This document shows, in pieces, positions 1-20,022 of a stretch of DNA of 64,000 nucleotides. The first letter of the stretch is position 1; every line of letters begins with the position of its first letter. Under the pieces are notes generated by a model. The model saw only the letters and a list, made by a program, of their open reading frames with translations, was not told where the DNA came from and made no database searches. The position numbers and the translations under genes are program-made. The DNA comes from Blastocatellia bacterium (GTDB lineage Bacteria > Acidobacteriota > Blastocatellia > RBC074), in assembly GCA_035280505.1 (NCBI GenBank), contig DATEFT010000635.1, positions 1,583 to 65,582 on the forward strand, in the 5' to 3' direction.

Positions 1-2529
1 ATCAACATCGTCTCCAAGAGCGGGACCAACGAGTTTCACGGCAATTTCTTCAACTATCTGCGCAGCGAGAGCATCGATTCGCGCAATACGTTCGCGACCG
101 GACTGCAACAGAAGCCGAAGTTCCGCCGCAACCAGCCCGGATTTACGCTCGGCGGTCCGATCAGAGACGATAAGACCTTCTTCTTCGCGGCCTACGAGGG
201 GCTCTTCCGGCGCGAATCGGCCATCTCGACGATCCTGGCCGATTCTTCGATCCTGCAGCCGTCCACCACCCAGCAGGCGATCATCAGCACGCTGCTCAGA
301 TCGAACAATCCCAATAACATTCAGTTGGCGCAGAAGCTCCAGGGCCTGCTGACGACCGCCCCCAACAGCCCGGTGCCGGGCGCCGGCCAGTTCTTTCCGC
401 AGAACCGCGCCACGTACAACTATCTCGCCAACTCGACCGGCGCGTTTCCGGTGGAGCAGAATGCGAGCACGGCCAGTTTTCGGCTCGACCATGCCTTCAC
501 GGAGCGGGACTACCTCTTCTTCCGCTACAGCCTGACCAACGACAGTCAGCATAATGCCGGAATCGGCGGACAGTTTGCGCCGTCGTCGGGATTCGACATC
601 GGGAGCCAGGACCACAGCTTCACCTTCGGGGAGACGCACGTCTTCAGAAGAAGCGGCGCCTCGAACGAATTTCGGCTGCAGCTCACGCGCAACATCTACA
701 ACATCAATACCGTCGATCCGTTCGGCCCGCGGGTTCAGATCGCGGGGATCGGATTCTTCGGTCGCGAGTTCGCCTCGCCTTCCGATCGAACCCAGCGGCG
801 CCTGCAATTTCTCGACAACCTGAGCCTGACGCGCGGCCGGCACAACTTCAAATTCGGTGGCGATTTCAGTCACTACAACGTCGACACGTTCAGCGCGGTC
901 TTCCTGGGCGGCACCGTCGATTTCGCCCAACTGCCCATTCCCCTGGCCGCGGTCCTGGACCCGATGGACCCGACCTTCACCGCCCAGTTGAGAGCCTCGC
1001 TGAACGCCCTGGGGCGGAGCGACCTGGCGGCGTCGATCAACGATCCCAATCAACCGCTGACCACCATCCAGCAGGTCAACTTCGGCCTGACGCGCTCGAT
1101 CAACCAGGGCTTCGGCAACCCGCGGGCGACCTTGCCGGGCAATATCCTGGGTTTCTATTGGCAGGACAGCGTCAAGGTCAAATCGAACCTGCAGCTCAGC
1201 TTCGGGATGCGCTACGACTACGACCTGCTGCCGCCCGGCACGCCGCGCGACAAGAACAATATCAGCCCCCGCTTCAGCTTCGCGTATGACCCGTTCAAGA
1301 CCGGACGGACGGTGATCCGGGGCGGCGGCGGAATCTACTATCAACAGTTCTTCGTCGGATCGGCCTTCATCTCCTCGATTCTGGGGACCGGGCAGATCAG
1401 CAACATTCTGGTTTCGGCCAATGCGGCGGCGACACCGGTGGGGCCGAACTCCACCTGCGGGACCGCCCAGATTCCGTCGGCCTGCTTCTACCGGGAGCTG
1501 GTCAGCCGCGGCCTGTTGACGCTGCCGTCGACCGGCACGATTCCGGAGTCGGCCTATGCGGACCTCCTGGGTCTGACCCGCCAGACCAGCAACAACCGGA
1601 TCGTGATCAGACTGGACCCGAACGCCGTCAACCCCTATGCGATTCAGTCCAGCCTGGGCATCGATCAACAGCTCGGCCGGGACTGGAACCTCTCGCTCAA
1701 CTATCTGATCAACCGCGGGATGAAACTGATCCGTCCCCGGCAGGTCAATGCCATCGCCGACCCGACGCAGCTCGACGCCTTCGGGCGCCCGGCCCTGATC
1801 GGAAGAATTGATCAGACCAGGTCGGCCGATTTCGTCACCGAGACCGCGGGCACCTCCGTCTATCACGGGCTGGCCGTCTCGATGAACAAACGGCTGAGCC
1901 GCCATTATCAGGTGATCGGGTCCTACACCTTCAGCAAGGCGATCGACGACGCCACCGACAACAACTTCGAGTTCACTCCCCAGGACCCGACCAATGCCCG
2001 CGCGGATCGCGCGCGTTCGGCCTTCGACGTGCGGCACGTCCTGTCGGTCGCGGCGATCGTCGACAGCCCGTTCCGGGGCGGCGCCGGCCGATCGTTGTAC
2101 GAGCGGGTCCTGTCCGATATGTACCTCTCTCCGATCGTGACCATGCGTTCCGGTTTCCCCTTCAACGTCCTGACCGGAATCGACGTCAACATGGACAACA
2201 ACCCCAACGACCGCCCGTTCGGTCTGGGACGCAACGCCGGGTTCGGCCCCGGCTACTTCAGCACCGATGTGCGGCTCGGCCGGCGCTTCCATCTGGGCTC
2301 CGACAACCCGCGCACGCTCGAGGTCAGCCTCGACACCTTCAATCTCTTCAATCGCGTCAATTATCGGGGGCTGAACAACAACACCGGTGGCGTCCTCTTT
2401 CTCGACCAGCTCACCAATTCGGATCTGGGACTCAAGGGTAGTCCCGACTTGCCGGCCAGCAGTTTCCGGGGATTCACCACGGCTTACGATCCTCGAATTC
2501 TGCAGCTCGGATTGAAACTCAATTTCTAA
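1..2529 (+). CDS. TonB-dependent outer-membrane receptor (CarboxypepD_reg/plug/barrel class), copy 1, 5-prime end cut by window edge
   Basis: Frame 1 is open from nt 1 (INIVSKSGTNEFHGNFF...FRRNQPGFTLGGP), upstream of the TTG-initiated ORF-track entry 325..2529. Colinear with residues ~245-1082 of the 4121..7369 paralog (~80-85% identical by eye). Ends in ...LKLNF. Confidence 0.9.
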   Translation: MNIVSKSGTNEFHGNFFNYLRSESIDSRNTFATGLQQKPKFRRNQPGFTLGGPIRDDKTFFFAAYEGLFRRESAISTILADSSILQPSTTQQAIISTLLRSNNPNNIQLAQKLQGLLTTAPNSPVPGAGQFFPQNRATYNYLANSTGAFPVEQNASTASFRLDHAFTERDYLFFRYSLTNDSQHNAGIGGQFAPSSGFDIGSQDHSFTFGETHVFRRSGASNEFRLQLTRNIYNINTVDPFGPRVQIAGIGFFGREFASPSDRTQRRLQFLDNLSLTRGRHNFKFGGDFSHYNVDTFSAVFLGGTVDFAQLPIPLAAVLDPMDPTFTAQLRASLNALGRSDLAASINDPNQPLTTIQQVNFGLTRSINQGFGNPRATLPGNILGFYWQDSVKVKSNLQLSFGMRYDYDLLPPGTPRDKNNISPRFSFAYDPFKTGRTVIRGGGGIYYQQFFVGSAFISSILGTGQISNILVSANAAATPVGPNSTCGTAQIPSACFYRELVSRGLLTLPSTGTIPESAYADLLGLTRQTSNNRIVIRLDPNAVNPYAIQSSLGIDQQLGRDWNLSLNYLINRGMKLIRPRQVNAIADPTQLDAFGRPALIGRIDQTRSADFVTETAGTSVYHGLAVSMNKRLSRHYQVIGSYTFSKAIDDATDNNFEFTPQDPTNARADRARSAFDVRHVLSVAAIVDSPFRGGAGRSLYERVLSDMYLSPIVTMRSGFPFNVLTGIDVNMDNNPNDRPFGLGRNAGFGPGYFSTDVRLGRRFHLGSDNPRTLEVSLDTFNLFNRVNYRGLNNNTGGVLFLDQLTNSDLGLKGSPDLPASSFRGFTTAYDPRILQLGLKLNF

Positions 2530-2671: not shown

Positions 2672-3649
2672 ATGATGAAGATCTTCGCTATCCTGCTTAC
2701 GTTGTGGGCCGGAACCGAGACGCTGGCTCAATCCGTATCGTTCGAGAAACAGGCTCTGACCTCTGTTCAGCAGATGTTCGCTTCCAGCCTCGACCCCGAA
2801 CTGCCGTCACGCCCCTTCCAAACCTGGCTCAATGAGGTGATCGGCCCGCGCGCCGGAGTGGTCTGGCAACTGACCGAATGCGGCGAAGGAATCGTCAACG
2901 CCGGCGAGCCCGGACCGGATCTGCCGGCCTGCGCCGAAGTCAACGCCAGTCTGCCTGACGGACGCAAAGTGATCGTCGCCATCACCGTCGGGACCTTCAA
3001 GAAGGGGGTCACCGGCAAACCGGTCTTCTTCCGCGCCGTCGTCGAACGTGACGAACAGCTTCGCCTGGTCGCCCACCTGCGCGAGGTGCCGACGGCCCTC
3101 TTCTCCTCCCAGCAGCTCGCCGCCACCCCACGAGACCCCACGCCCCCGAGCCAGCCCAGCCCCGCGGCGCCCAAACCCGCGAAACGCTCGATTAATCTGC
3201 CTCCGCTGACCGCGAAGGGATGGGCCGTCAACTTCCCGCTCCATGCCTCCCAGATCGCCTCGGTCGACCACAACTCCGAGATCGCGCCACAGGGTCCGCG
3301 CGAGGAGGAGGCGCCGCCGCCGCCACCGGTGGCATCGCCGGCCAAACTTCCCGCCGCTCCCCAGGACGTGGCGGAGGGCATTCTGCAAGGTAAGGCCCTG
3401 TTCAAGGTCAGACCCGAATATCCGGCAAGCGCGAGAAAGATGAACGCCCTGGGCGCGGTGGAGGTCCAGATCGTGATCTCCGAAAGCGGAAAGGTCCTCG
3501 ACGCCAAGGCCGTCAGCGGGCACATGGCGCTGCGCAGCATCGCCGTGAAAGCCGCCTCTCAATGGATCTTCAAGCCGACCACCGTCAACGGAACCCCGGT
3601 CAAGGTTCAGGGCATCCTGACCTTCCTCTTCACCCCCAACTCAAAATAG
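2672..3649 (+). CDS. Secreted TonB C-terminal-domain protein, partner of receptor copy 1
   Basis: Signal-peptide-like MMKIFAILLTLWAGTETLAQ. Conserved domain (WQLTECGE...DLPACAEVNASLPDGRKVIV...GTFKKG). Pro-rich linker (EEAPPPPPVASPAKLP). TonB_C-like end (VRPEYPASARKMNALGAVEVQIVISESGKVLDAKAVSGH...WIFKPTTVNGTPVKVQGILTFLF). Confidence 0.8.
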   Translation: MMKIFAILLTLWAGTETLAQSVSFEKQALTSVQQMFASSLDPELPSRPFQTWLNEVIGPRAGVVWQLTECGEGIVNAGEPGPDLPACAEVNASLPDGRKVIVAITVGTFKKGVTGKPVFFRAVVERDEQLRLVAHLREVPTALFSSQQLAATPRDPTPPSQPSPAAPKPAKRSINLPPLTAKGWAVNFPLHASQIASVDHNSEIAPQGPREEEAPPPPPVASPAKLPAAPQDVAEGILQGKALFKVRPEYPASARKMNALGAVEVQIVISESGKVLDAKAVSGHMALRSIAVKAASQWIFKPTTVNGTPVKVQGILTFLFTPNSK

Positions 3650-3652
3650 CGA

Positions 3653-3681
3653 TTGCCAAGTGCAATCACCACCAGTATAAT
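3653..3681 (+). promoter_or_regulatory. Sigma70-like promoter candidate for receptor copy 2
   Basis: TTGCCA (3653..3658), 17-nt spacer, TATAAT (3676..3681). Lies 4 nt after the upstream stop and ~440 nt before the 4121 start. Confidence 0.45.
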
Positions 3682-3762
3682 TTGTTAATATTGATATTTT
3701 CCCGACCCCAAAGTTGTCCCAAATCTGTTGCCCACTCTCGATAAGCTAACTCTTTAGCATCA

Positions 3763-3794
3763 GGCGGCACGAAGCCGAGGCGGCACGAAGCCGA
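3763..3794. repeat. Perfect 16-bp tandem direct repeat (x2) in the leader
   Basis: GGCGGCACGAAGCCGA at 3763..3778 and again at 3779..3794. Followed by hairpin GAAATCC (3799..3805) / GGATTTC (3814..3820). Confidence 0.9.
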
Positions 3795-4120
3795 TCACGA
3801 AATCCCCGATCTTGGATTTCACGTCAGATAGATCGCGCCTAGTAGGATCAATACTAGGGAGACCTATCCTGCCGGAACTGGAAATATCATCTTGGCGCGG
3901 TGATGGTGTTAGGTGATGGGTGGTAGGTGATATACGCAGACCTAGACTCGTGAAGTAATCACGCCCTCATTATCCTCAAATTCAATTGAATATCCCCAGG
4001 GCTCCGCTTCCCTCCTGAACCGGCTTTCATCGGTCTCCGGAGGGAGACCAGGTCCATCCATTTTGGCTTTCAATGCGGCAGGCGCCACTGTTTGAACCAG
4101 ATCCTTAAATAGGAGGTCAA

Positions 4121-7100
4121 ATGCTCAAGCAATGCATCCATCTGGTCTGTATCCTGACCACACTCGCTCTGTTCAACATCCCCGTTTTGCCGCAAGCCCG
4201 CAGTTCGGCGGCCGACCTGACCGGCGTCGTCTCGGATCCGACCCAGCTCCGGCTGAAGGGTGCGACCGTGACCGCGGTCAATCTCTCGACCGGGTTCACC
4301 CGGTCATCGACCACCGACGCCACCGGGGCCTACCGTCTTCCGCTCTTGCCGCCCGGCCAATATGAGGTGCGGGTCGAGATCGCGGGCTACAACACGCAGA
4401 TCAAAAAGGGCGTCACGCTGATGGTCGGTCAGACGGTGGCGATCAACTTCGAGATGGCGGTCGGGTTCGCCAAGGAGATCGAGGTGATCCAGACCGACGC
4501 GCCGATCGGGGAGCCCGAGCGGACCCACCAGGCCGAGGTGATCACGCAGAGGCCGATCAACGACTTGCCGATCAACGGCCGCAACTTTCTGTCCTTCGTC
4601 AAATTGACGCCCGGCGTGACCGACGAGAATCCGGCCATCGCCGGCGCGCAGCCGGGGCCGCTGACCACCTCCGGCCTCTCCTTCGCCGGCCAGAACGCCC
4701 GCACCAACAGCGTCCAGATCGACGGCGTCGACAACAACGACGTCACCAGCAACGGCGTCCGGCCGACCATCGGCCAGGAGGCCGTCAGCGAGTTTCAGAT
4801 CAATCGCAACAGCTACAATCCGGAGTTCGGGCGCGCCACCGGCGGCGTGATCAACATCGTCTCCAAGAGCGGGACCAACGATTTTCATGGCAACCTCTTC
4901 GATTTCATCCGCAGCGACGAGATCGACGCGCGCAACAGTTTCGCCACCGGACAGCCGGAGCGGCCGGAATTTCGCCGGAACCAGCCCGGCTTCACCTTCG
5001 GGGGCCCGATCAGAACCGACAAGACCTTCTTCTTCGCGGCCTACGAGGGGCTCTTCCGGCGCGATTCGGCCATCACGACCATTCTGGCGGATCCCTCGAT
5101 CCTGCAGCCCACGACCGGCCAACAGGCCGTCATCCAGACCCTGCTCAGATCCGGGAATCCGACCAACATCTCGAATGCGTTGACGCTGCAGAGCCTGTTG
5201 ACGACCTCCGCCAACAGTCCGGCGCCGCCGTCCGGGCAGTTCTTTCCGCAGAACCGCGCCACATACAACTATCTCTCTCGTTCGACCGGCGCGTTCCCCA
5301 TCGATCAGAACGCGAGCACGGCCAGTTTCCGGCTCGACCACGCCTTCACCGAACAGGACTATCTCTTCTTTCGCTACAGTCTGACCAACGACAGCCTGCA
5401 CAACGCCGGGATCGGCGGACAGTTTGCGCCGTCGTCCGGGTTCGACATCGCGAATCATGATCACACCTTCACCTTCGGGGAGACGCACGTCTTCAAGAAC
5501 AGCGGGGCCTCGAACGAATTCCGCCTGCAACTGACGCGGAACGTCTACAACATCGACCCGGTCGACCCCAATGGACCGCGGCTCCAGATCGCCGGAATCG
5601 GCATGTTCGGCCGCGAGTTTGCTTCGCCCTCCGACCGGACCCAGCGGCGCGTGCAGTTTCTGGACAACCTGAGCTTCACCCGCGGCCGGCACAACTTCAA
5701 AGTCGGAGCCGATTTCAGCCATTACAACGTCGACACCTTCAGCGCGATCTTTCTCGGCGGCAATATCGACTTCGCGCAACTGCCGATCCCGGTCGCCGCG
5801 GTGCTCGACCAGGGGCTGACCAACCAGGTGATCAACGCGCTGGGCAACCTGGGACGGAGCGACCTGATTCCGGTGCTCACCAGTCCCAACCAGCCGCTGA
5901 CCACCGTCCAGCAGGTCAACTTCGGCCTGACGCGTTCGATCAGCCAGGGCTTCGGCAATCCGAGGGCCAAGTTCCCGGGCAATATTCTGGGGCTCTACTG
6001 GCAGGACAGCGTCCGGCTGAGACCGAACCTGCAACTCACCTTCGGGCTACGCTACGACTACGACCTGCTGCCCCCCGGCACGCCCCGCGACAAGAACAAT
6101 TTCGGTCCGCGCTTCAGCTTCGCCTACGACGTCTCCGGGAACGGCCGGACGGTGATCCGTGGCGGCGGCGGCAGTTTCTACCAGCAGTTCTTCGTGGGCT
6201 CGGCCTTCCTCTCGTCGGTGCTGGGCAGCGGGCAGATCAGCACCATCCTGGTCACGCCCGACCAGCGATTGACCCCGGTGGCTCCCAGCTCGCCCTGCGG
6301 CTCGACCTTCTCTCCGTCGGCCTGCTTCTACCAGTTGCTCGTCGGCAGCGGGTTGTTGGGAATGCCCGCGACCAGCCCCATCCCCGAATCGGCCTATGCC
6401 AGCCTGCTGGGTTTGACCCGCCAGACCAGCAACAACCGGCAGGTGATCAGACTGGACCAGAACGCCGTCAATCCCTACGTCATTCAGGCCAGCCTGGGGC
6501 TCGACCAGCAACTCGGTCAAGACTGGAATCTGTCGTTCAACTACCTCCTCAACCGCAGCGCGAAACTGATCCGTCCGCGTCAGGTCAACGCCCTGCCGGA
6601 CCCGACCAGACTCGACGCCTTCGGACGCCCGGCGCTCACGCGGCGCGCGGACCCGACGAAGCTGGCCGATTTCGTCACCGAGACCGCGGGCAACTCGATC
6701 TATCACGGGCTGGCCGTCTCGATGAATAAACGGCTGAGCCGCAACTATCAGGTGATCGGGTCCTACACGCTGAGCAAGACGATCGACGACACCACGGATC
6801 AGAACTATGAGCAGATCCCGCAAGACCCGACCAATACCCGGGTCGATCGCAGCCTCTCGTCGTTCGACGTCCGCCACATCCTCTCGCTGGCGGCGATCGT
6901 CGATAGCCCGTTCCAGGGCGGCGCCGGCAAATCGTTGTACGAGCGGGTCCTGGCCAACATGTACTTCTCGCCGATCATGACCGTGCGTTCCGGGTTCCCC
7001 TTCAATGTTCAGACCGGGATCGACATCAACATGGACAACAACGCCAATGACCGCCCCCTCGGTCTGGGACGCAACGCCGGAATCGGCCCCGGATACTTCA

Positions 7101-7369
7101 GCACCGATGTCCGGGTGGGCCGGCGCATCCGTTTCAGCCCCGACAGCCCGCGCTCGCTCGAGGTCATTCTCGATACCTTCAACCTCTTCAACCGGGTCAA
7201 TTTTAAGGGGGTCAACAACAATACCGCCGGCGTGCTCTATCTCGATCAGCTCGTCGGCTCCGAGATGAGCCTGAAAGGCACTTCGAGCCTGCCGGCGACC
7301 AGTTTCCGGGGCTTCACCTCGGCCTATGATCCCCGAATTGTTCAGCTCGGACTGAAACTCAATTTCTAA
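4121..7369 (+). CDS. TonB-dependent outer-membrane receptor, copy 2
   Basis: 1082 aa. RBS AGGAGGTCAA-ATG. Signal peptide, SSAADLTGVVSD CarboxypepD_reg-like start, plug motifs PINGRNFLSF and FRRNQPGFTFGGP, long barrel, terminal LKLNF. Confidence 0.92.
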   Translation: MLKQCIHLVCILTTLALFNIPVLPQARSSAADLTGVVSDPTQLRLKGATVTAVNLSTGFTRSSTTDATGAYRLPLLPPGQYEVRVEIAGYNTQIKKGVTLMVGQTVAINFEMAVGFAKEIEVIQTDAPIGEPERTHQAEVITQRPINDLPINGRNFLSFVKLTPGVTDENPAIAGAQPGPLTTSGLSFAGQNARTNSVQIDGVDNNDVTSNGVRPTIGQEAVSEFQINRNSYNPEFGRATGGVINIVSKSGTNDFHGNLFDFIRSDEIDARNSFATGQPERPEFRRNQPGFTFGGPIRTDKTFFFAAYEGLFRRDSAITTILADPSILQPTTGQQAVIQTLLRSGNPTNISNALTLQSLLTTSANSPAPPSGQFFPQNRATYNYLSRSTGAFPIDQNASTASFRLDHAFTEQDYLFFRYSLTNDSLHNAGIGGQFAPSSGFDIANHDHTFTFGETHVFKNSGASNEFRLQLTRNVYNIDPVDPNGPRLQIAGIGMFGREFASPSDRTQRRVQFLDNLSFTRGRHNFKVGADFSHYNVDTFSAIFLGGNIDFAQLPIPVAAVLDQGLTNQVINALGNLGRSDLIPVLTSPNQPLTTVQQVNFGLTRSISQGFGNPRAKFPGNILGLYWQDSVRLRPNLQLTFGLRYDYDLLPPGTPRDKNNFGPRFSFAYDVSGNGRTVIRGGGGSFYQQFFVGSAFLSSVLGSGQISTILVTPDQRLTPVAPSSPCGSTFSPSACFYQLLVGSGLLGMPATSPIPESAYASLLGLTRQTSNNRQVIRLDQNAVNPYVIQASLGLDQQLGQDWNLSFNYLLNRSAKLIRPRQVNALPDPTRLDAFGRPALTRRADPTKLADFVTETAGNSIYHGLAVSMNKRLSRNYQVIGSYTLSKTIDDTTDQNYEQIPQDPTNTRVDRSLSSFDVRHILSLAAIVDSPFQGGAGKSLYERVLANMYFSPIMTVRSGFPFNVQTGIDINMDNNANDRPLGLGRNAGIGPGYFSTDVRVGRRIRFSPDSPRSLEVILDTFNLFNRVNFKGVNNNTAGVLYLDQLVGSEMSLKGTSSLPATSFRGFTSAYDPRIVQLGLKLNF

Positions 7370-7605: not shown

Positions 7606-8553
7606 ATGAAGAAGATTTTGGTGATCCTGATGCTGTGCTGGGCCTGGGTGAAGACCCCGGCCCAAACTATTTCATTCGAGCAGCAAGCTTTGACCGCGGT
7701 TCAGCAGATGCCCGCCTCGAGCCTCGATCCCGAACTGCCGGCCCGCTCTTTCCAGACCTGGTTCAACGAACTGATCGGCCCCCGCGCCGGAGTGATCTGG
7801 CAGTTGACCGAGTGCGGTGAACGAATCTCCGCTCAGGGCGAAACCGAATCGGACCTGCCGGCCTGCGCGGAGGTCACCGCGGGCCTGCCGGATGGAGGCA
7901 AAGTGATCGTCGTGATCACCGTCGGGACCTTCAAAAAGGGGCTCACCGGCAGACCGGCCTTCTTTCGCGCCGTGGTCGAACGCAACGAACAGCTCCGTCC
8001 CGTCCAGCGCCTCTGCGAAGTGGCCGAGGTCCTGCTCATGAATACCACCCGGCCCCGCAGTCTGGGCCGCTCCAAATCGGGAGCGCTCTCCATCAAGCTG
8101 CCGGCGCTCAAACCCAATCCGGCGGGAATTAATTTCCCTTTTTATGCCGCCCGCATCTTGCCGACCAGTCCGATTTTTGAGATCGTTCCACAGGGGTTAA
8201 TTCGAGAAGAGGCGCCGGCTCCACCGCCGGCACCATCGTCCACTCCCCAGGCCTTGCCGGAAACACAGGATGTGGCGGAAGGAGTCTTACGGGGCAACGC
8301 CACGACCAAGGTCAAACCGAGTTACCCGCTAAGTGCGAGAAAGATGAATGCCTTAGGACCGGTAGAGGTCCGAATCTTGATCTCGGAGACCGGGACTGTA
8401 ATCGATGCCAAGGCCCTCAGCGGACATATGGCGCTGCGCGGCGCGGCAGTTGAGGCAGCATCCCGATGGGTCTTCAGACCCACGACCATCAACCGCACTC
8501 CCGTCAAGGTCCAGGGCATCTTGACCTTTATCTTTACGCCCAGTGAAAAATAG
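7606..8553 (+). CDS. Secreted TonB C-terminal-domain protein, partner of receptor copy 2
   Basis: Start chosen at internal ATG 7606 (MKKILVILMLCWAWVKTPAQ), matching the other partners. The ORF-track start at 7549 adds 19 aa that run out of the hairpin. Same WQLTECGE...DLPACAEV...GTFKKG domain, Pro-rich linker and TonB_C end. Confidence 0.8.
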   Translation: MKKILVILMLCWAWVKTPAQTISFEQQALTAVQQMPASSLDPELPARSFQTWFNELIGPRAGVIWQLTECGERISAQGETESDLPACAEVTAGLPDGGKVIVVITVGTFKKGLTGRPAFFRAVVERNEQLRPVQRLCEVAEVLLMNTTRPRSLGRSKSGALSIKLPALKPNPAGINFPFYAARILPTSPIFEIVPQGLIREEAPAPPPAPSSTPQALPETQDVAEGVLRGNATTKVKPSYPLSARKMNALGPVEVRILISETGTVIDAKALSGHMALRGAAVEAASRWVFRPTTINRTPVKVQGILTFIFTPSEK

Positions 8554-8732: not shown

Positions 8733-9917
8733 ATGCGATTACGGTTCAGACTGAGTGTCTTGGGTAGAGATCGAATCCTGAAGGCGGCTGTCTCCATCAA
8801 CCTCTTGCTGTTCTGCTGGAGCGCCACGATCTTCGGACAGACGAACGCGAAACGCGAGGCGGGTGACCTCTTTGCCGGGATTGAGCTGGGAACGGACGGC
8901 CTCAGAACGGTGGCCCTCCGCTTCTCCCGCGGAGAAGACGAGCCCAGTCTCAAGCTGCTCTATTCGGAGAATATCCATCTCGGCCTGGGTCGCACCAGCA
9001 GCGGAAAGTTCGCGCCGCGCGCCTCGGAGGAGGCCGCGCAGGCTCTCCAGAAATTGTTGGGGCGCCTGGATCAGCAATACCGCGTCCCCGCCGAACGAAT
9101 CTTTCTGATCGGCAGCAGCAGTCTCGGCGCCGACCATCCGGAGGACCTCCTCGGCACCATCGCCAAGGTCACGGGGCGCACCCTCAACTTTCTCGATGTG
9201 GAGACCGAAGTTCAGCTCAGCATCGTCGGAACCATCTCGCGGCGGGAGAGCATCGGCGATACCTGGATCGACAATCGCAACTCATCCGTCCTGATCGAGA
9301 TCGGCAGCGATAGCACAAAGGGCGGTTACCAGTTGCTGAAATATCTGCCTTCGGCGCCTCCCAGCTACGATTTCGTGACCATGAGCATTCCCCAGGGAAC
9401 GGTCAGCTTCGCCAACGAAATCAGCCGCGCCAACAAGACCGTCAGCGATCTGCCGGGATTCGCCCAGAAAGTCCAGGGCTCGGGCGCCGGCACTCTGCGG
9501 AACGCGCTCCGTAAAGAGTGCGAGAGCAAACCGGGCCTCGTGATTCGCAAACGCGTCTACCTGACGGGCGATATCGTCTGGGCTCTGGCGACCCTGGTCT
9601 ACCCCACCGACCGCCAAAATTTCGTGCCGCTCACGCCCAAGGACATCACCCTCTTCGCCGGCAAAATGGCCGAGAACCCCCAGGAGATGCTCACTCCCGA
9701 CCTCTCGAAGGTCACGGACCGCGACCTGGCTCAGGAGATCGAACGGGAATTGGAAGCCGTCAGAAACACCTTCACGCCCCAACAACTGATCGCCGGAGCC
9801 GAGTTGCTCAAGACCATCTCGACCGAACTCAAATGGCAGGAGAAGAAGATCTGGTTCGCCCGCTTCGGACAGTTGGGCCGCGTCCTGAGTTACGTTCGGC
9901 TCCAGGCCGGAAAGTAG
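8733..9917 (+). CDS. Hypothetical secreted protein, possibly a degenerate ASKHA (Ppx/GppA-like) fold
   Basis: 394 aa with GAGG 7 nt upstream of the ATG. N-terminal hydrophobic segment INLLLFCWSATIFGQ. By-eye resemblance to Ppx/GppA motifs: GIELGTDGLRTV, RIFLIGSSSLG, ETEVQLSIVGT, VLIEIGSDSTKGGY (the usual GGGS is degenerate). Confidence 0.45.
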   Translation: MRLRFRLSVLGRDRILKAAVSINLLLFCWSATIFGQTNAKREAGDLFAGIELGTDGLRTVALRFSRGEDEPSLKLLYSENIHLGLGRTSSGKFAPRASEEAAQALQKLLGRLDQQYRVPAERIFLIGSSSLGADHPEDLLGTIAKVTGRTLNFLDVETEVQLSIVGTISRRESIGDTWIDNRNSSVLIEIGSDSTKGGYQLLKYLPSAPPSYDFVTMSIPQGTVSFANEISRANKTVSDLPGFAQKVQGSGAGTLRNALRKECESKPGLVIRKRVYLTGDIVWALATLVYPTDRQNFVPLTPKDITLFAGKMAENPQEMLTPDLSKVTDRDLAQEIERELEAVRNTFTPQQLIAGAELLKTISTELKWQEKKIWFARFGQLGRVLSYVRLQAGK

Positions 9918-10067
9918 CTCGCGCGCCGGAAGCTAGTAACTTCCGCCCCCAGGTACCATCGATCCTGGTAATCGAAGCAGTAACTCCGGCTCATCCGGCT
10001 CATCCTCTAATTACAGCCTTGCAATAATTTAGACGCGCGCTTCCGCATGACCAGGGAAGTAACCCCA

Positions 10068-10095
10068 TTGACTTCGCACTCCGATAATGTATAGT
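10068..10095 (+). promoter_or_regulatory. Promoter candidate for receptor copy 3 (conserved block)
   Basis: TTGACT (10068..10073), 16-nt spacer, TATAGT (10090..10095), with TG just upstream. The block ATTGACTTC-N12-TGTATAGTTA is shared with 15065 and 19540. Confidence 0.5.
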
Positions 10096-10581
10096 TAGCG
10101 GTGTCTGTAAACTAACTAGCTAACACAAATAATTAATATCTGTCCATGCTTCTCAAAGGATCAAAGGATTGCTGTGTCAGGTTTCTCCCGATCTTTCTTT
10201 GAAAGCAGGTACCGGGCGGGCGTCGTTTTGCGCACCGCCTCCAGCTAGCCCCACTAGCACTGCAACATCTAGCCCAGGACTATGTTCGGCAGCAGAATAG
10301 TAATCTGGCGAATAATCAAGATCGTAAATTATTTATAATACGGCTATCACCTTTGACACCGCGCCCTCATTCCATGGGTGTGAGACCTACTTGTGGATAG
10401 TGGCAGTACTTTGTTTGGAAATCATCATAATCGATAAAGCTATTATGATCTCTTAATCATCAATCACTGCCATCCCGACCTCTATCCCTTGAGAGGAAGT
10501 AAGGTCGGATTAGTTACGAGTATCTAACGAGTGGAATTTCATTCTGCTCGTAACAGGTTAATCCACTTAGCAGGAGGTCAC

Positions 10582-13500
10582 ATGTTCAAGCAATTGATAA
10601 GGGGGTTGTGTCTGTTGGCCGTGCTTTGCCTCGGCGCGGTTCCGATTTGGGCTCAGGCCCAGGGCTCGTCGGCGGATTTGACCGGTACCGTCTTTGACCC
10701 TTCGAAAGCGTTAATCAAAGGTGCGACCGTCACCGCGACCAACGTCGAGACGATGTTGACCCGGGTCGTGACGTCCGGCCCGAACGGGGTCTATCGGATC
10801 TCGCTGCTGCCGCCCGGAACGTATGAGGTCAAGAGCGAGGCCCAGGGTTTCAGCCCTCAAGTCAAGCGGGGGGTCACGCTGACCGTCGGACAGACCGCCG
10901 TGATCAATTTCGAGCTGCCGCTGGGCGTCAAGATGGAGGTCGAAGTGATCGACACCTCGGTGCCGCTCCTCGAAATGGAGCGAACCCATCAAGCCAGCAC
11001 CATCACTCAAAAACCGATCAATAATCTGCCGATCAACGGGCGCAATTTTCTGGATTTCGCGAAGCTGACGCCCGGAGTCTCCGACGAGAGTCCGTTGGTG
11101 ACGAAGGTCGCGGTGCCCCAGATTCCGACGTCCGGGCTCTCGTTCGGCGGTCAGAACGGGCGAGCCAACAGCGTGCTGATCGACGGCGTGGACAACAACG
11201 ATATCGCCAGCAACGGCGTCCGCCCGACCATCAGTCAGGAGGCGGTCCGCGAGTATCAGATCAACCGTCAGGGCTATAACCCCGAATTCGGCCGCGCGAG
11301 CGCGGGAACCATCAACCTCGTCACCAAGAGCGGGACCAGCAAGTTCCACGGAAACGTCTACAACTATTTCCGCAACGAACAACTGGATGCCCGCAACACG
11401 TTCGCCACCTCGGCGTCGCAGGATCCGCCCTTCAAGCGGAACCAGCCCGGCTTCACGCTGGGCGGCCCGCTCAGAGCCAAGGCATTCTTCTTCGTTTCGC
11501 ACGAGGGGCTCTATCGCCGGGAGTCGGCGATCACGACCATCCTCTCCGATCCCTCGATTCTGCAACCGACTTCCGGACAGCAGGCGCTGATCAACGCGCT
11601 GCTCGGATCCGGCAATCCGGCCCTGGGTGTGAGGCTGCAAAACATGCTCAACATCGGCCCGAACGCCCAGCCGCCGTTCCAGCGGAATCTGGCGACCTAT
11701 CAATTCCTGAACAATGCGACCGGGATCTTCCCGATTCGCGAAAATTCCTCGACCTCCAACCTCCGGATCGATCAGGCGTTCAACGAACAGGACTATCTCC
11801 TGTTCCGATACAGCTTCACCAACGACGCGATCCATGGGGTCGGAGTCGGCGGTCTGCAGAGCCCTTCCCGAGGCTATGACATCGGAATCATCGATCACGG
11901 ATTCGTGGTGGGCGAGACCCATCTCTTCTCCGGGGGCTCGGCGAACGAGCTTCGTTTTCAGTTCGTGCGTAACACGTTCAACGCCAACACGGTCGATCCG
12001 TACGGTCCGCAGTACAACCTCTTTGGGATCGGAACCCTCGGCCGCGATTTCAGCGCGCCCTCGGATCGCCGGCAATATCGAACGCAATTGCTCGATAACT
12101 TTTCTCTGATGCGAGGAAAGAACAGGATCAAATTCGGCGGCGATTTCAACCGGTACAGCTTCAAGGTCAATCAACCGATCTTCGGAGGCGGCAACATCGA
12201 CTTCTCACCGATTCCGGTCCCGCTGGGCGCGATTCTGGACCCGGCCTATACCGGCCAGGTGCTGACCGCGCTCGGTCCGGGCGGACTGAACCGGCCGGAT
12301 CTGCAGGCGGTCCTGGGGCAGAACCTGACCGTCGTGCAGTTGCTGAATTATGGATTCCCGGCCTCGCTCAACCAGGGATACGGCAATCCCAGCGCCGATC
12401 TTTCGGGGTACCTCTTCGGGACCTACGCGCAAGACGGCGTGCAACTGAAGCCCAATCTGTTCCTGAACTTCGGTCTCCGCTACGATTACGACAAACCTCC
12501 GGCCGGAGTGAATCGCGATCGGAACAATTTCAGCCCGCGAATCGGTTTCTCGTACGATCCGTTCAAATCCGGCAAGACCGTGATCCGCGGCGGCGGCGGA
12601 ATGTTCTACCAACCGCTCTTCACGGCGACGGCCTTCATCTCGACGATTCTGGGCGGCGGACAGATCAGCAATATCCTGGTCACGGCCGATCCCTTGATCT
12701 CGCCGATCGATCCGAATTCATTTTGCGGCCGGCAGCTAGCGACCTCCAGAGTGCCGCCGTCCGCCTGCTTCTACCAGTCACTGGCCGCGCAGGGCGTGAT
12801 CACGCTCCCGTCGACCTCCACGATTCCTGAATCGGCCTACCAGCAACTGCTGGGCCTGAACCGCGCGGGGAGCGTCAATCGGGCGGTGCTGCGGCTGGCC
12901 GACAACGTCGTCAATCCGTATAGTTTTCAGGGCAGCATCGGGATCGATCATGAGTTCGGCCGTGACTTCTTCGTCTCGGTCAACTATCAGCTCAATCACG
13001 GCGTGAACCTGATCCGAAGCCGCCAGATCAACGCGCTCCCCAATCCCAACCGGCTGGATGCGCTGGGGCGCCCATCCCTCACCGGACGCGCCGACCAGAC
13101 GAAACTGATCGACTATATCTATGAGACGGGCGGCAATTCGATCTATCACAGCATGCAGGTGGAGGTGAATCGCAAGTTCGGCCGTTACTATCAGTTGATC
13201 GGAGCCTACACGCTGAGCAAGGCGATCGACGACGCGACCGATCTCGCTTTCGGACAGGGTCCGCAAGACCCGACCAACCCCGGAGCCGATCGCGGTCTTT
13301 CGGCGTTCGATGTCCGGCAACGGCTCACGCTCACCTCGCTGATCGATAGTCCGTTTAAAGGCGGCAGCGGCAAACCGCTCTATCAGCGGGTGCTCGCCAA
13401 CTTCTACTTCTCGCCGATCGCGACCGTGCGCTCCGGTTTCCCATTCAACATCGTCACCGGAATCGACGTCAACCTGGACAACAACATCAACGATCGTCCC

Positions 13501-13812
13501 TTTGCGGTCGGAAGAAATACCGGCCTCGGGCCCGGATTCTTCGCGATGGATCTGCGAATCGGTCGCCGGTTCCCGCTCGGAGCCGACGGTTCGCGTTCGA
13601 TCGAGGCGATCTTCGATACTTTCAATCTCTTCAACCGCGCCAACTACAAAGACCTGAACAACAACACCAGCGGACAGCTCTATCTCGACCGGGCCGGTTT
13701 CTCGGATGTCCGCGTGGCAGGTTGTACGGACCGGGCGACGAGCGCCCTCTGCGGGTTCACCGCGGCTTACGACCCACGCATTATTCAACTCGCGGTCAAG
13801 CTCAACTTCTAA
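10582..13812 (+). CDS. TonB-dependent outer-membrane receptor, copy 3
   Basis: Start set at ATG 10582 (MFKQLIRGLCLLAVLCLGAVPIWAQAQGSSADLTG), preceded by AGGAGGTCAC. The ORF-track GTG at 10531 lacks an RBS. Same domain order as copy 2; ends LKLNF. Confidence 0.9.
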   Translation: MFKQLIRGLCLLAVLCLGAVPIWAQAQGSSADLTGTVFDPSKALIKGATVTATNVETMLTRVVTSGPNGVYRISLLPPGTYEVKSEAQGFSPQVKRGVTLTVGQTAVINFELPLGVKMEVEVIDTSVPLLEMERTHQASTITQKPINNLPINGRNFLDFAKLTPGVSDESPLVTKVAVPQIPTSGLSFGGQNGRANSVLIDGVDNNDIASNGVRPTISQEAVREYQINRQGYNPEFGRASAGTINLVTKSGTSKFHGNVYNYFRNEQLDARNTFATSASQDPPFKRNQPGFTLGGPLRAKAFFFVSHEGLYRRESAITTILSDPSILQPTSGQQALINALLGSGNPALGVRLQNMLNIGPNAQPPFQRNLATYQFLNNATGIFPIRENSSTSNLRIDQAFNEQDYLLFRYSFTNDAIHGVGVGGLQSPSRGYDIGIIDHGFVVGETHLFSGGSANELRFQFVRNTFNANTVDPYGPQYNLFGIGTLGRDFSAPSDRRQYRTQLLDNFSLMRGKNRIKFGGDFNRYSFKVNQPIFGGGNIDFSPIPVPLGAILDPAYTGQVLTALGPGGLNRPDLQAVLGQNLTVVQLLNYGFPASLNQGYGNPSADLSGYLFGTYAQDGVQLKPNLFLNFGLRYDYDKPPAGVNRDRNNFSPRIGFSYDPFKSGKTVIRGGGGMFYQPLFTATAFISTILGGGQISNILVTADPLISPIDPNSFCGRQLATSRVPPSACFYQSLAAQGVITLPSTSTIPESAYQQLLGLNRAGSVNRAVLRLADNVVNPYSFQGSIGIDHEFGRDFFVSVNYQLNHGVNLIRSRQINALPNPNRLDALGRPSLTGRADQTKLIDYIYETGGNSIYHSMQVEVNRKFGRYYQLIGAYTLSKAIDDATDLAFGQGPQDPTNPGADRGLSAFDVRQRLTLTSLIDSPFKGGSGKPLYQRVLANFYFSPIATVRSGFPFNIVTGIDVNLDNNINDRPFAVGRNTGLGPGFFAMDLRIGRRFPLGADGSRSIEAIFDTFNLFNRANYKDLNNNTSGQLYLDRAGFSDVRVAGCTDRATSALCGFTAAYDPRIIQLAVKLNF

Positions 13813-13969: not shown

Positions 13970-15007
13970 ATGAAGACCTCTGCGATGATCATAGCAATGG
14001 CGTTGCTGCTGTGTGCGGAGATCCGGGTCGCGGCCCAGACGGAGTCGTTCGAGAAGCAGGCCGTGGCGCTGGTCCGGCAGATGCCGGCCTCCGCGCTCGA
14101 CACGGAGTTGCCCAAACTTCCGTTCTCCACCTGGCTCACCCAACAGCTTGGCCCGCAAGCCGGCATCGTCTGGCAATTGACCGAATGCGGCGCCCCGATC
14201 AGGGACTCCGACCAGGCCGAGCCGGATCTGCGCGCCTGTACGGAGGTCAACGCCAGCCTGCCCGACGGCAGCAAGGTGATCATCGCCGTCATGGTCGGGA
14301 CGTTCAAGAAAGGAATCATCGGGACTCCGATCTTCTATTACGCCGTCGTGGAACGCGGCGAACAGCTCTATCAGATTGGCCGGTTGCACGAGGTCCCGCA
14401 GTCGATCTCCAAAGACAAGGCTCCGCTGGCGGTCCGGGGCTCTTCAAAATCGAGGGATCATTTCATCAAGTTGCCGGCCATCAATCTGGATCAGTTCGAT
14501 CGACAAGAGCGGACCGACCAGCAGTATCTCTTCGGAACCCAGCTCTTCTCACGGGCCAATCAGCCCTGGCTGCCGCTCCCTCGAGCGGACCTGGAAGAGA
14601 ATGTGGTTCCGCCGCCCACCGCCCCAGCATTCGCCAAATCAGGCACCAAACCGGGCGCCAAACCGGGCGCCAAACCGGGCCTCCCCTCCATTCCATCCGC
14701 CGAGACTGATTCATCGCCGCAGAGGGTCTCGGAGGGCGTCATCCAGGGCCAGACCATCACCCGAGTCAAACCGATCTACCCGCCCGCCGCCCGCATGCTG
14801 AACCTGAACGGAATGGTCATGGTCGAGATCACGATCTCGGAGACCGGCCAGGTGACGGCCGCCCACGCCACCAGCGGACATAAAGCCCTGCGCTCACCGG
14901 CCGAGGACGCCGCCTACAAATGGGTCTTCAGACCGACGCTGCTCAACGGCGATCCAGTCAAGGTTCAAAGTATCCTGACCTTCATCTTCACGCCCGGCGG
15001 AAAATAA
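13970..15007 (+). CDS. Secreted TonB C-terminal-domain protein, partner of receptor copy 3
   Basis: AGGAG RBS. MKTSAMIIAMALLLCAEIRVAAQ signal-like segment. WQLTECGAP...DLRACTEVNASLPDG...GTFKKG domain. TonB_C end (VKPIYPPAARMLNLNGMVMVEITISETGQV...WVFRPTLLNGDPVKVQSILTFIF). Confidence 0.8.
   Translation: MKTSAMIIAMALLLCAEIRVAAQTESFEKQAVALVRQMPASALDTELPKLPFSTWLTQQLGPQAGIVWQLTECGAPIRDSDQAEPDLRACTEVNASLPDGSKVIIAVMVGTFKKGIIGTPIFYYAVVERGEQLYQIGRLHEVPQSISKDKAPLAVRGSSKSRDHFIKLPAINLDQFDRQERTDQQYLFGTQLFSRANQPWLPLPRADLEENVVPPPTAPAFAKSGTKPGAKPGAKPGLPSIPSAETDSSPQRVSEGVIQGQTITRVKPIYPPAARMLNLNGMVMVEITISETGQVTAAHATSGHKALRSPAEDAAYKWVFRPTLLNGDPVKVQSILTFIFTPGGK
14643..14678. repeat. 12-bp tandem repeat x3 inside the partner-3 linker
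   Basis: GCACCAAACCGG GCGCCAAACCGG GCGCCAAACCGG, encoding GTKPGAKPGAKPG. Confidence 0.85.
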
Positions 15008-15064
15008 CAGGCGGATCGAGGCCCGATGTATAAATCATAATAGACGGCCGGCAGGTTAAAGTTA

Positions 15065-15092
15065 TTGACTTCACGAGGTAAAAACTATAGCT
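15065..15092 (+). promoter_or_regulatory. Promoter candidate for receptor copy 4 (conserved block)
   Basis: TTGACT (15065..15070), 15-nt spacer, TATAGC (15086..15091). Block ATTGACTTC-N11-ACTATAGCTTA. Confidence 0.45.
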
Positions 15093-15484
15093 TAGCCCTC
15101 GTTTGTTATTAACCATAGTCTACTAACTTATAACGATGCCAACATTGTTCTGATAGAGACTGCTATTTTGTTCTTAGATCTAAGCCAGGAGCGATAACTT
15201 CGATCAGCCCTATTCCGATCAGCCCCCGCGCTGCGCGCCCCAATAAACCAAGACCCGGCAAAGACCCAATGGAGATCCTCACCACCACACGCTCGGCGTG
15301 ATTGGCGTCCTCACTGCTGGATCCGGTGCTGCCCGGAGAAGCAGCCTCGCGACATTCTCACTCTCGGCGCCGCTCTATCAAAACAATCATCATTCTTGTG
15401 CGCTGCTCCACCATCCCGCTCCAGCGGAGGGTCGGGTGAGTTGTGCCTGATCGAGGCGGCGAACAATCGGTAATTGGAGGTTAA

Positions 15485-18400: not shown

Positions 18401-18733
18401 AACAACAACAACGACCGGCCCTTCGCCGTCGGGAGAAATACCGGCCTCGGACCCGGATTCTTCACCACGGATCTGCGGATCGGCCGCCGGTTCCGGCTCA
18501 GCCCCGACAGCCCGCGCACCATCGAGGCCATCTTCGACACCTTCAACCTCTTCAATCGGGTCAACTATAAAGAGGTGAACGGCAACACCGGCGGCGTGCT
18601 CTATCTCGAACAGTTGGGAATCACCGATTTCCGCGTGACCGGCTGTGCCGACCGGGCCGCCAGCAGCTTCTGCGGCTTCACCTCCGCCTATGAACCGCGC
18701 GTCATTCAACTGGCGGTGAAACTCAATTTCTAA
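15485..18733 (+). CDS. TonB-dependent outer-membrane receptor, copy 4 (no partner gene downstream)
   Basis: 1082 aa. RBS TGGAGGTTAA-ATG. Signal peptide ...GPGLAQAQSASADLTG, plug motifs PLNGRNFLDF and FKRNQPGFTLGGP, terminal LKLNF. Confidence 0.92.
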   Translation: MLRDLVRVCYVFSLLLLTAGPGLAQAQSASADLTGSVADPSKAVVSGATVTAVNLETGLIRVATSDLTGVYRVSLLPPGCYELKVRAEGFNVQVKRNIMLTVGQTALINFDLALGVKTETEVIETSTPVIEMERTHQSSTITQRPIDNLPLNGRNFLDFARLTPGVVEESPAVAKVLVPQLPTSGLSFAGQNGRSNSIQIDGVDNNDITSNGVRPTISQEAVREFQINRHGYNAEFGRASGGVINIVSKSGSNELHGNLYDYFRNERLDARNVFASAYRQDPPFKRNQPGFTLGGPLQRDRTFFFASYEGLIRRESTISTILADPWILNPTTGQQSLIAPLLGSTNPDDVLLGQQLQALLTTTANSAPQSIGPALQQNRATYHYLAASTGIFPVNETSNTGSLRIDHAFSEQDYLFSRYNLTNDSQRNIGIGGLFAPSAGFDLAIIDHTYVLGETHLFRGGSTNELRLQLVRNAFNANTVDPFGPHYQIAGIGTFGRDFTAPSNRTQWRGQVLDNYSVKWGRHNFKLGGDFNRYAFEVYNPVFGGGNIDFTQLPIPLGAVLNGKTQAQLNAALSRLGRPELGSVLLQPLTTVQQINFGLPSAINQGYGNPNTNLNGSILGLYLQDGLQIKPDLYLSFGLRYDYELQPDGTPRDGNNLGPRFGFTYTPFKGGKTLIRGGGGLYYQSLYTATAFISTILGRGQISNVLVSADPLLTPIAANSPCGQALASGLQPSFCFYQQLVAGGRLSFSPTSTIPESAYSDLLGLTRQTSANRVILRLDNNAVNPYSVQGSLGIDHQFGRDLSLSVNYLINRGTKLIRTRQVNALPNTVMTDAFGRPALTNRVDPTRLADYVYETAGSSIYHGLAVSLNKRLSRHYQLIGAYTFGKAIDDVTDLNFEQGPQDPTRIGADRSLSSFNVSHRLSLTSLFDSPFRGGAGRPLYDRILADFYLSPILTLRSGFPFNIRTGIDVNMDNNNNDRPFAVGRNTGLGPGFFTTDLRIGRRFRLSPDSPRTIEAIFDTFNLFNRVNYKEVNGNTGGVLYLEQLGITDFRVTGCADRAASSFCGFTSAYEPRVIQLAVKLNF

Positions 18734-18954: not shown

Positions 18955-19191
18955 ATGGCTAAGAGATGTCAGGTCACGGGCAAGAAGCCCATGTCCGGTA
19001 ACAATGTTTCACACGCGAACAACAAAACGAAACGCCGTTTTGAACCGAATCTGCAACATCACCGTTTCTGGGTGCCGAGCGAAGGCCGCTGGGTGCGGCT
19101 GCGGGTGACCGCTCGTGGAATCAAGACCATCGACAAGCTCGGAATCGAAAAAGTGCTGGCCGAGATCCGCGCGCGCGGCGAAAAGGTCTAG
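18955..19191 (+). CDS. rpmB: 50S ribosomal protein L28
   Basis: 78 aa. [39 protein letters not shown]...[11 protein letters not shown] is colinear with the L28 family. GAAGGAG RBS. Confidence 0.95.
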
Positions 19192-19539: not shown

Positions 19540-19567
19540 TTGACATCTCCCTGCGAAATGTATAGCT
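19540..19567 (+). promoter_or_regulatory. Promoter candidate for receptor copy 5 (conserved block)
   Basis: TTGACA (19540..19545), 15-nt spacer, TATAGC (19561..19566). AGCAGTAATCCATTGACATC-N11-TGTATAGCTTA closely parallels GGAAGTAACCCCATTGACTTC-N12-TGTATAGTTA at 10054. Confidence 0.5.
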
Positions 19568-20022
19568 TATCGGCGCTCCTCATCAAAATGTGAACTGGTC
19601 AAGACGTGTACTAACGATTATTCATATTTATTTTATATCATCTTAAGAGGTGCTGTTCCCTCTTTCACTTTGCCTCTTAAGATTCGGAACAGATAGGCAC
19701 AGCCAATCACGACTCGCTTCAAAACTATGACCCCCGTGCAGGAGCCCCGTTAGTTAGTCCTAAGCGAGATGTAGCAGCGCAAATCAGAGAATTACACCGT
19801 TTCGCCCGATGTGAACCTTATCATCACAACCGGGTGGGGCCTCATATCGCAAAGCGCAGTCACGCTCTACGCTCGCCCATATCATACTTTTTTCAAGGCA
19901 ATTATGGATTCTTAAATGCCGCTCCGCGCGCATCTTCCCCCAAGGCGATGCAAGCGGAATAGATACGACTAACTTGCAGCGCGGCAGTCCTTGCCGCTCG
20001 GTCGAGCTAAGAAGGAGGTCCA

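Follow-up and report, generated by a model that had tools for sequence, protein, structure and literature searches.

Canonical TonB is held in the inner membrane by an uncleaved N-terminal helix that presents a Ser-x3-His-x6-Leu-x3-Ser (SHLS) face to ExbB, and it crosses the periplasm through a Pro-rich linker. Just after the anchor lies the D-box or motor box, a strand of the pattern Pro-ΦζΦζΦΦζ-Pro that binds the ExbD dimer (PMC10907165), and the C-terminal domain is recognized by a YP motif together with Gly174, Gly186 and Trp213 (PMC10350073). In Myxococcus xanthus, the TonB box of the transporter Oar binds the TonB C-terminal domain and is needed for function, which is impaired by substitutions of Oar E118 and I122 (PMC6434023). 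Fusions to further domains have also been described: DUF4488, a putative small-ligand-binding domain that is mostly free, is joined to a TonB C-terminal domain in 19 of 146 copies, for example in Bacteroides thetaiotaomicron TonB8, whose gene closes a polysaccharide-utilisation locus (PMC10350073). Here we analyse a 64,000-nucleotide (nt) stretch of a Blastocatellia (Acidobacteriota) metagenome-assembled genome (GCA_035280505.1, contig DATEFT010000635.1; hereafter the window), in which four genes encode what we call partner proteins. Each follows a gene for an Oar-type TonB-dependent transporter (receptor), and each is predicted to combine a cleavable signal peptide, a two-cysteine domain (the N-domain), a Pro-rich linker and a TonB C-terminal domain (TonB_C), with no canonical TonB membrane anchor.

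The first 24.5 kb of the window carries five large plus-strand genes, four of which are each trailed by a gene for a protein of ~320–345 residues. The original prediction, made from the DNA alone, had assigned one layout to these four partners, and end-to-end alignment bears this out: they are paralogues, 48–64% identical over their full length. Partner starts lie 142–236 nt past the upstream receptor stop, and partner ends ~470 nt short of the next receptor start. Since each partner stands behind its receptor, the cognate of the first partner (2672–3649) is the receptor ending at 2529 and not the one starting at 4121. GenBank names for the four are "energy transducer TonB" or "TonB family protein". 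The genes of the array are:

1–2529, plus strand: 3′ part of the gene for an Oar-type TonB-dependent transporter, truncated at the window edge (Pfam OMP_b-brl_4, E = 2e-86); its product is 76% identical to the 4121 receptor over residues 244–1082 (tblastn)
2672–3649, plus strand: partner 1 (HKX30312.1, named "energy transducer TonB" in GenBank), with signal peptide 2672–2728, N-domain 2729–3109, disordered linker 3110–3379 containing the linker motif I-N-L-P-P-L (3191–3208, plus strand), and TonB_C ~3380–3634
4121–7369, plus strand: Oar-type transporter with signal peptide, CarboxypepD_reg extension (Pfam, E = 2e-21), TonB box, plug and barrel (OMP_b-brl_4, E = 2e-110); TonB box EIEVIQT at 4475–4495 (plus strand), a position that matches the Oar TonB box
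7606–8553, plus strand: partner 2 (HKX30314.1), with signal peptide 7606–7662, N-domain 7663–8043, linker motif equivalent 8092–8109 and TonB_C ~8284–8538
8733–9917, plus strand: predicted secreted protein of 394 residues, a third gene, with signal peptide ...TIFG↓Q
10582–13812, plus strand: Oar-type TonB-dependent transporter (Pfam, paralogue alignment), TonB box EVEVIDT at 10936–10956; ATG 10582 is favoured over GTG 10531 (the longest open reading frame, ORF) by paralogue alignment and a GGAGG site
13970–15007, plus strand: partner 3 (HKX30317.1; the GenBank start is 5 codons later than the one used here), with signal peptide 13970–14035, N-domain 14036–14416, linker motif equivalent 14465–14482 and TonB_C ~14738–14992
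15485–18733, plus strand: Oar-type transporter without a partner gene (Pfam; rpmB is next), TonB box ETEVIET at 15839–15859
18955–19191, plus strand: rpmB, ribosomal protein L28 (78 residues), alone between two receptor genes
20023–23301, plus strand: Oar-type TonB-dependent transporter (Pfam), TonB box ETEVIET at 20377–20397
23454–24464, plus strand: partner 4 (HKX30321.1), with signal peptide 23454–23513, N-domain 23514–23894, linker motif equivalent 23940–23957 and TonB_C ~24192–24449

The partner N-termini consist of one or two basic residues, an uncharged run of 12–14 residues and a cleavage-type site, that is, an n-h-c peptide with small −3/−1 residues of the kind used by Sec and signal peptidase I, as judged by a heuristic rule. 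Cleavage had been placed after a terminal AQ or SQ; the signal-peptide layout stands, but the −3/−1 rule fits one residue earlier, at TLA↓Q, TPA↓Q, VAA↓Q and TRS↓Q, with Gln at +1. Across 141 members of the wider family, the median length of the uncharged run is 13 residues, and 138 members carry a −3/−1 signal-peptidase site. The uncleaved helix with an SHLS face is absent from the partners, and no His occurs in the hydrophobic segments of the four, as the original prediction had also remarked, or in the uncharged run of any family member (0/141). In E. coli TonB, a more permissive count in which His is allowed gives a run of 21 residues. Among the four paralogues the N-terminal segments vary, whereas the residue that directly follows is conserved. 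Lipoprotein anchoring was ruled out by lipobox counts, with [LVI][ASTVI][GAS]C-like matches in 4 of 178 family members, inside the h-region, and in 0/4 partners. A longer N-terminus from an upstream start was excluded for partners 3 and 4, whose starts are fixed by in-frame stops 5 codons upstream and by AGGAG ribosome-binding sites. The short uncharged run, the missing His and the −3/−1 site thus indicate that the partners are without the canonical TonB transmembrane anchor, as originally claimed, and that their signal peptides are probably cleaved before the conserved Gln. As a mechanistic label, "energy transducer TonB" is probably wrong for these proteins.

All nine exported array proteins are predicted to be cleaved so that Gln becomes residue +1 (AQA↓Q, xxA↓Q, FG↓Q), as is the case in 67 of the 141 wider-family members, a pattern in the array that resembles the "Q-rule" described as Bacteroidetes-specific (PMC5837995). 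Many metagenome homologues (P0001–P0004, P0009–P0012, P0014, P0015 and others) bear Arg/Asp/Glu/Thr-rich N-terminal extensions of 40–70 residues, for example MPQRHGDTEKGRR...RDRETKRR, and then Leu/Ser-rich stretches ahead of the real signal peptide; these extensions have the look of gene calls that were carried too far upstream, into a low-complexity DNA repeat.

At the other end of the partners, the Pfam TonB_C model (PF03544) matches well above its cutoff (E = 6e-15 to 2e-13; 51–56 bits vs 24.6). Y250-P251, G261, G273 and W298 are invariant or nearly so, with the spacing of E. coli Y163-P164, G174, G186 and W213. Foldseek aligns the modelled domain to 2gsk_B and 6i97_D, TonB in the BtuB:TonB and FoxA:TonB complexes, with a template modelling (TM) score of 0.78, and phmmer matches the partner to the TonB2 structure 2k9k. 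All hallmarks being kept, sequence and model together identify a bona fide TonB C-terminal domain.

The linker that precedes this domain is 65–132 residues long (median 86; 17% Pro) and has a PPPP stretch just before the C-terminal domain, in keeping with the Pro-rich, periplasm-spanning linker of TonB and with the variable Pro-rich linker and TonB_C-like end that had been described for the partners. In the full-length AlphaFold2 model (predicted TM score, pTM, 0.48), the predicted local distance difference test (pLDDT) is ~95 for both domains and 42–62 for the linker (residues ~146–230). This model has no interdomain packing, and the partner can be pictured as two beads on a string. The idea that the linker motif or the N-domain docks on the protein's own TonB_C was considered and rejected, as no confident contact appeared. 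The motif, VxLPxΦ, lies 10–22 (median 18) residues past the N-domain and has the family consensus (R/K)x(R)xVxLPx(I/V/L)(K/N); elsewhere the linker is variable, but the Pro of the motif (P177) is conserved to 90% or more. Its identification as a D-box was also rejected, because the pattern fails and the invariant Pro lies mid-motif instead of flanking it; AlphaFold2 confidence in the motif is low, and the partners have no Pro-flanked D-box strand just after their N-terminal segment.

The N-domain itself (residues 20–146, ~127 residues) was modelled by AlphaFold2 at pLDDT 91 and pTM 0.83 as three helices, a five-stranded antiparallel sheet and a C-terminal helix. The motifs quoted in the original prediction are all invariant in the four partners (partner 1 numbering): W65-Q-L-T-E-C70-G, D83-L-x-A-C87-x-E-V-x-A-x-L-P-D-G-x-K-V-I, G107-T-F-K-K-G and E125-R-x-E-Q-L, together with the N-terminal Q-(S/T)-x-S-F-E-x-Q-A. 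Both Cys are kept in 138/138 N-domain copies of the wider family and flank the strand 1–strand 2 loop in the model, consistent with a disulfide-bearing domain; the Cys–Cys loop is its most variable part (31% identity vs 50% elsewhere in the four paralogues). Apart from these Cys, conservation is confined to hydrophobic positions, Gly, Pro and a single Asp, the only acidic residue among them. Such a set of conserved positions, with the Cys, points to a structural binding module, and not to an enzyme or metal site. As the original prediction would lead one to expect, the N-domain matches no known family with an assigned function: searches of Pfam and NCBIfam gave no match, and a PDB sequence search gave 0 hits at E ≤ 10. 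DUF4488 (PF14869) is absent from the partners, in which TonB_C is the sole Pfam hit at E ≤ 0.01. Foldseek against the PDB placed NTF2-like proteins on top (best E = 0.2, TM 0.34, root-mean-square deviation >5 Å), a non-significant similarity. Although the order of secondary structure (three helices, five strands, one helix) is compatible with an NTF2-like fold, that label was therefore not adopted, and the modelled fold appears both confident and novel-looking.

The receptors have the CarboxypepD_reg extension, TonB box, plug and large barrel of Oar-type transporters, with E-values of 2e-19 to 2e-22 for PF13620 and 1e-105 to 1e-110 for the PF25183 barrel; the Pfam Plug model was sub-threshold, and in one receptor only (23.2 bits vs 23.9). 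Their signal peptides, which must be cleaved in outer-membrane receptors, end in AQA↓Q, the same style as in the partners. The TonB box occupies receptor residues 119–125, between the N-terminal extension and the plug, with E119 and I123 corresponding to Oar TonB-box residues E118 and I122. This is the EVIxT strand that had been put forward as a docking candidate in each receptor. The position and the equivalents in the other receptors hold, but the strand is the receptor TonB box and so an expected, not a novel, docking site. Relatives have ESILVET, EAVVIET, DSVSVET and similar sequences at the equivalent strand, which are typical TonB-box β-strand patterns.

The partner architecture was found at 11 genome loci and 80 metagenome loci. 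The partner gene lies behind an Oar-type receptor in all genome loci with enough flank (Blastocatellia or Acidobacteriota metagenome-assembled genomes), and in soil metagenomes the receptor is directly upstream at 57 of 65 assessable loci (88%) and the TonB_C end is kept at 69 of 70. Spacing is tight, 17–240 nt in 12/12 complete pairs; L010 and L011 hold tandem arrays of three pairs, and L026 is likewise receptor-linked. In a Mantel test over these 12 pairs, the distance matrix of the receptors correlates with that of the partners (r = 0.92, p = 2e-4). Shared order, tandem arrays and this correlation argue that receptor and partner are inherited, duplicated and diverging as a unit.

The partner is probably co-transcribed with the upstream receptor. 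Receptor–partner gaps of the four-pair array contain no promoter-like sites, and an element ATTGACTTC...TATAGCT, a sigma-70-like consensus match only, is conserved upstream of three receptors. Sigma-70-like matches, again to the consensus only, occur upstream of two receptors, at 3653–3681 (TTGCCA-17-TATAAT, plus strand), ~440 nt before the next receptor, and at 10068–10095. The receptor leaders, which are ~400–450 nt long and lie downstream of the sigma-70-like element, fall at 3650–4120, 9918–10581, 15008–15484 and 19560–20022; a strong GGAGG site precedes each receptor start codon, and a search for riboswitches or known RNAs gave 0 Rfam hits in the whole window. The 394-residue protein encoded at 8733–9917 has a homologue after the partner in L002, L003, L005 and L007 (also L109) and at 23 of 49 assessable metagenome loci, and may be a third component of the receptor–partner module. 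It belongs to no assigned family, and a single hit, Ppx-GppA / ASKHA-like (E = 0.007), falls around a GIELGTDGLR motif.

When 1.84 billion cluster representatives were searched exhaustively with a profile, this returned 809 N-domain proteins at E ≤ 1e-3, 491 of them at E ≤ 1e-10; the tiny family of 35 hits given by a word-indexed protein search was a sensitivity artefact that this search corrected. Among 180 classified proteins, 41 join the N-domain to TonB_C, 130 have a single N-domain and 9 a tandem double N-domain. The single-domain class includes many genuine secreted proteins of ~150 residues, with textbook signal peptides (e.g. ...SAAQ, ...ASAQ), and others that are fragments. The N-domain is thus not peculiar to the partners; it is a widespread module, mostly free-standing. 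One free-standing subgroup belongs to a tight operon, in which the N-domain start codon abuts the end of the β-propeller gene with no gap:

L020, 7972–12868 (also L021, L022 and L014–L017): operon for a 675-residue β-propeller (Reg_prop), an N-domain protein and a 786-residue VIT-VWA protein

We favour, with a likelihood that we put slightly short of even, a reading of these sequences in which the partner is a receptor-dedicated, non-energising periplasmic adaptor that docks on the TonB box of its transporter. The partner would be exported by Sec and, upon cleavage of its signal peptide, released as a soluble periplasmic protein. Its TonB C-terminal domain would then dock by β-strand addition on the E-x-E-V-I-x-T strand of the upstream Oar-type transporter, and the N-domain, as a non-catalytic, disulfide-stapled α+β module, would bind a second ligand, either cargo or an envelope protein. 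With a Pro-rich linker of ~85 residues, this module could roam the periplasm while the partner stays tethered under the receptor, where it would recruit or receive something at the periplasmic face of the transporter. Such a protein would necessarily compete with the real TonB for the TonB box and, having no membrane helix to engage ExbB, would itself transmit no proton-motive force.

Several points weigh against this proposal. The signal-peptide call for the partners rests on heuristics, and the correlation in the Mantel test could in part stem from the common descent of linked genes, and not from functional co-adaptation. About 12% of close relatives are orphan copies with no upstream receptor, and the receptor at 15485–18733 functions without a partner gene: rpmB occupies the slot where that gene would be, and the gap, which contains rpmB, holds no degenerate partner. 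The long conserved linker and its short motif exceed the need of a local adaptor and hint at a second, distant attachment. Finally, on five independent contigs, fusions 33–37% identical to partner 1 sit in a nucleoside-salvage cluster with no receptor:

L023, 4092–9685 (also L024 and L027–L029): cluster of purine-nucleoside phosphorylase (PNP), uridine kinase, cytidine deaminase, N-domain–TonB_C fusion, amidohydrolase, and a TPR and TonB_C protein, in this order

The second TonB_C protein of this cluster comprises a signal peptide, a Thr/Pro-rich stretch, TPR-like helices and a truncated TonB_C, and one further distant fusion precedes an MFS gene. The receptor link that had been proposed for the fusion therefore holds in close relatives but fails in these distant ones; members of at least 42% identity, including L026, are the receptor-linked, amplified ones. 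Given the distant fusions and orphans that lack a receptor, the family does not intrinsically need a dedicated one, and the N-domain–TonB_C fusion is older than its link to receptors. The salvage-cluster members suggest that this group has repeatedly joined TonB_C to various N-terminal modules in secreted proteins that lack an anchor.

A soluble protein that keeps its TonB C-terminal domain intact and is encoded alongside its receptor could also be a brake or decoy, which would block the TonB box until its release is triggered by a signal that the N-domain senses, and would keep off the true TonB or TonB-hijacking phages and bacteriocins; its main function would be gating or inhibition and not cargo handling. 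This reading draws on the same facts as the adaptor, and periplasmically expressed TonB C-terminal fragments reportedly inhibit FhuA- and FecA-dependent transport in E. coli, as Howard et al. are said to have found in 2001. We nevertheless consider it unlikely, since it would be an odd design to co-transcribe an inhibitor, in a fixed ratio, with each copy of its target, there are no regulator genes nearby, and the long linker, the VxLPxΦ motif and the widespread free N-domain would be left unexplained. The gene order might also be mere hitch-hiking, with TonB_C binding some other target (peptidoglycan, another β-strand ligand or any TonB box) in a general envelope role. The existence of orphan copies, of distant fusions and of a TPR-TonB_C protein in the salvage cluster without a receptor fits this possibility, as does the nearly uniform TonB box of the window receptors, which leaves little room for specificity. 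It becomes improbable in the face of a receptor directly upstream in 88% of assessable loci, repeated co-duplication at tight spacing, and the strongly correlated divergence of partner and receptor.

The remaining readings would connect the partner to the inner membrane. Were its signal peptide an uncleaved signal-anchor, the partner would be a tethered TonB paralogue like HasB or FusB that has lost the Ser/His motif, and it is true that AlphaFold2 draws a continuous helix over residues 3–34, that receptor-adjacent dedicated TonB paralogues such as HasB and FusB are well known, and that GenBank annotates TonB. However, 12–14 uncharged residues are too short for a bilayer, the −3/−1 site recurs in 138/141 family members, the N-terminal segment varies among paralogues while the residue just after it is conserved, and both the receptors and the homologous free proteins of ~150 residues use the same ...A↓Q-style signal peptides, so that we judge an anchor to be very improbable. 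A true force transducer could instead dispense with the helix, if the N-domain, the VxLPxΦ strand or both docked on an inner-membrane motor (an ExbD/TolR-like dimer or other). The layout does parallel that of TonB (anchor, short β-prone motif, Pro-rich spacer, C-terminal domain), with a positionally conserved motif and a linker of 65–132 residues and 17% Pro that is long enough for the periplasm, and Loll et al. argue that the D-box:ExbD contact may carry force while the helix may only localise TonB (PMC10907165). Against this stand the failure of VxLPxΦ to fit the D-box pattern, the low AlphaFold2 confidence in the motif, and free-standing N-domains in operons without a motor. Moreover, no ExbB, ExbD, TolQR or other TonB is encoded among the Pfam-scanned window ORFs (to about 61 kb), no further TonB_C protein is encoded in the fetched related loci, and motor genes are absent from the Pfam-labelled called genes around homologues. 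We thus find a transducer quite doubtful, and a helix-less TonB that serves each Oar-type transporter as its private exported energy coupler would be a long shot.

Downstream of the array, the window continues with genes of other kinds:

24474–28351, minus strand: trio right after the last partner gene, encoding DUF4350 (467 residues), DUF4129 (351 residues) and an unassigned 436-residue ORF
35538–41280, plus strand: complete Phe/Tyr degradation set (biopterin-dependent hydroxylase, HPPD-like dioxygenase, homogentisate 1,2-dioxygenase, unassigned 294-residue ORF, fumarylacetoacetase), with an AsnC-type regulator, a class IV aminotransferase and an acyl-CoA synthetase upstream

Oar-type transporters are hugely expanded in soil Acidobacteria, and their substrates are largely undefined. 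If docking on the TonB box is true, the partners would add a receptor-private periplasmic accessory layer to TonB-dependent transport, whether as adaptor, gate or cargo hand-off; if a helix-less transducer is true, the TonB helix would be dispensable for coupling, as the D-box model suggests, and the partners would form a new class of periplasmic force transducer. Either way, a natural, conserved and amplified TonB_C protein that appears to be anchor-less is at odds with the membrane-anchored TonB, yet databases call it "energy transducer TonB", and for such genomes a TonB count based solely on TonB_C hits will give too many energy transducers. The N-domain, with 809 cluster representatives and two invariant Cys, merits a family entry. 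Within the literature searched, which held no description of natural signal-peptide-bearing TonB_C proteins of this kind or of the N-domain, both the architecture and the N-domain are previously undescribed.

Compared with canonical TonB (E. coli TonB, P. aeruginosa TonB1), the partners share a TonB_C with its YP, Gly, Gly and Trp, a structural match, and a Pro-containing linker of similar length. They differ in having neither the uncleaved helix nor the SHLS motif, the D-box pattern or, among the scanned ORFs, exbBD nearby, and in carrying an extra N-domain of 127 residues within a protein for which a soluble periplasmic state is predicted. TonB C-terminal fragments engineered for the periplasm are closer in this respect: they are delivered by a signal peptide, are membrane-free, bind TonB boxes and compete with full-length TonB, although they are artificial, have no N-terminal module and are not receptor-linked. 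By analogy, the inhibition they cause would show what a natural soluble TonB_C could do, and not what the partners do. HasB (Serratia) and FusB (Pectobacterium) resemble the partners in being encoded beside one TonB-dependent transporter, which they are presumed to serve, and the FusB C-terminal domain, which also contacts substrate, shows that docking on a receptor and contact with cargo can go together in one TonB-family protein. In contrast to the partners, however, HasB and FusB keep the inner-membrane helix, depend on ExbBD, and show neither an accessory globular domain nor tandem amplification.

For the receptors, the nearest described system is M. xanthus Oar with TonB1-ExbB1-ExbD (PMC6434023), in which CarboxypepD_reg, a TonB box at ~118–125, plug and barrel are shared. 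There, exbB, exbD and a membrane-anchored tonB flank oar, whereas here the flanking TonB_C gene appears to be anchor-less and is not accompanied by motor genes among the scanned ORFs. B. thetaiotaomicron TonB7, TonB8 and TonB11, which are functionally uncharacterised, also combine TonB_C with an extra periplasmic domain (PMC10350073), and TonB8 follows the same modular logic as the partners, namely a mostly free domain that is sometimes fused to TonB_C and found at a transporter locus. These proteins differ from the partners in their accessory domains, in the domain order of TonB8 and in phylum, and no tandem receptor–partner arrays are reported for them. Overall, these likenesses suggest that the partners would work most like a lone TonB C-terminal domain in the periplasm, and that in organisation their nearest counterparts are the multi-domain TonB_C proteins of Bacteroides.

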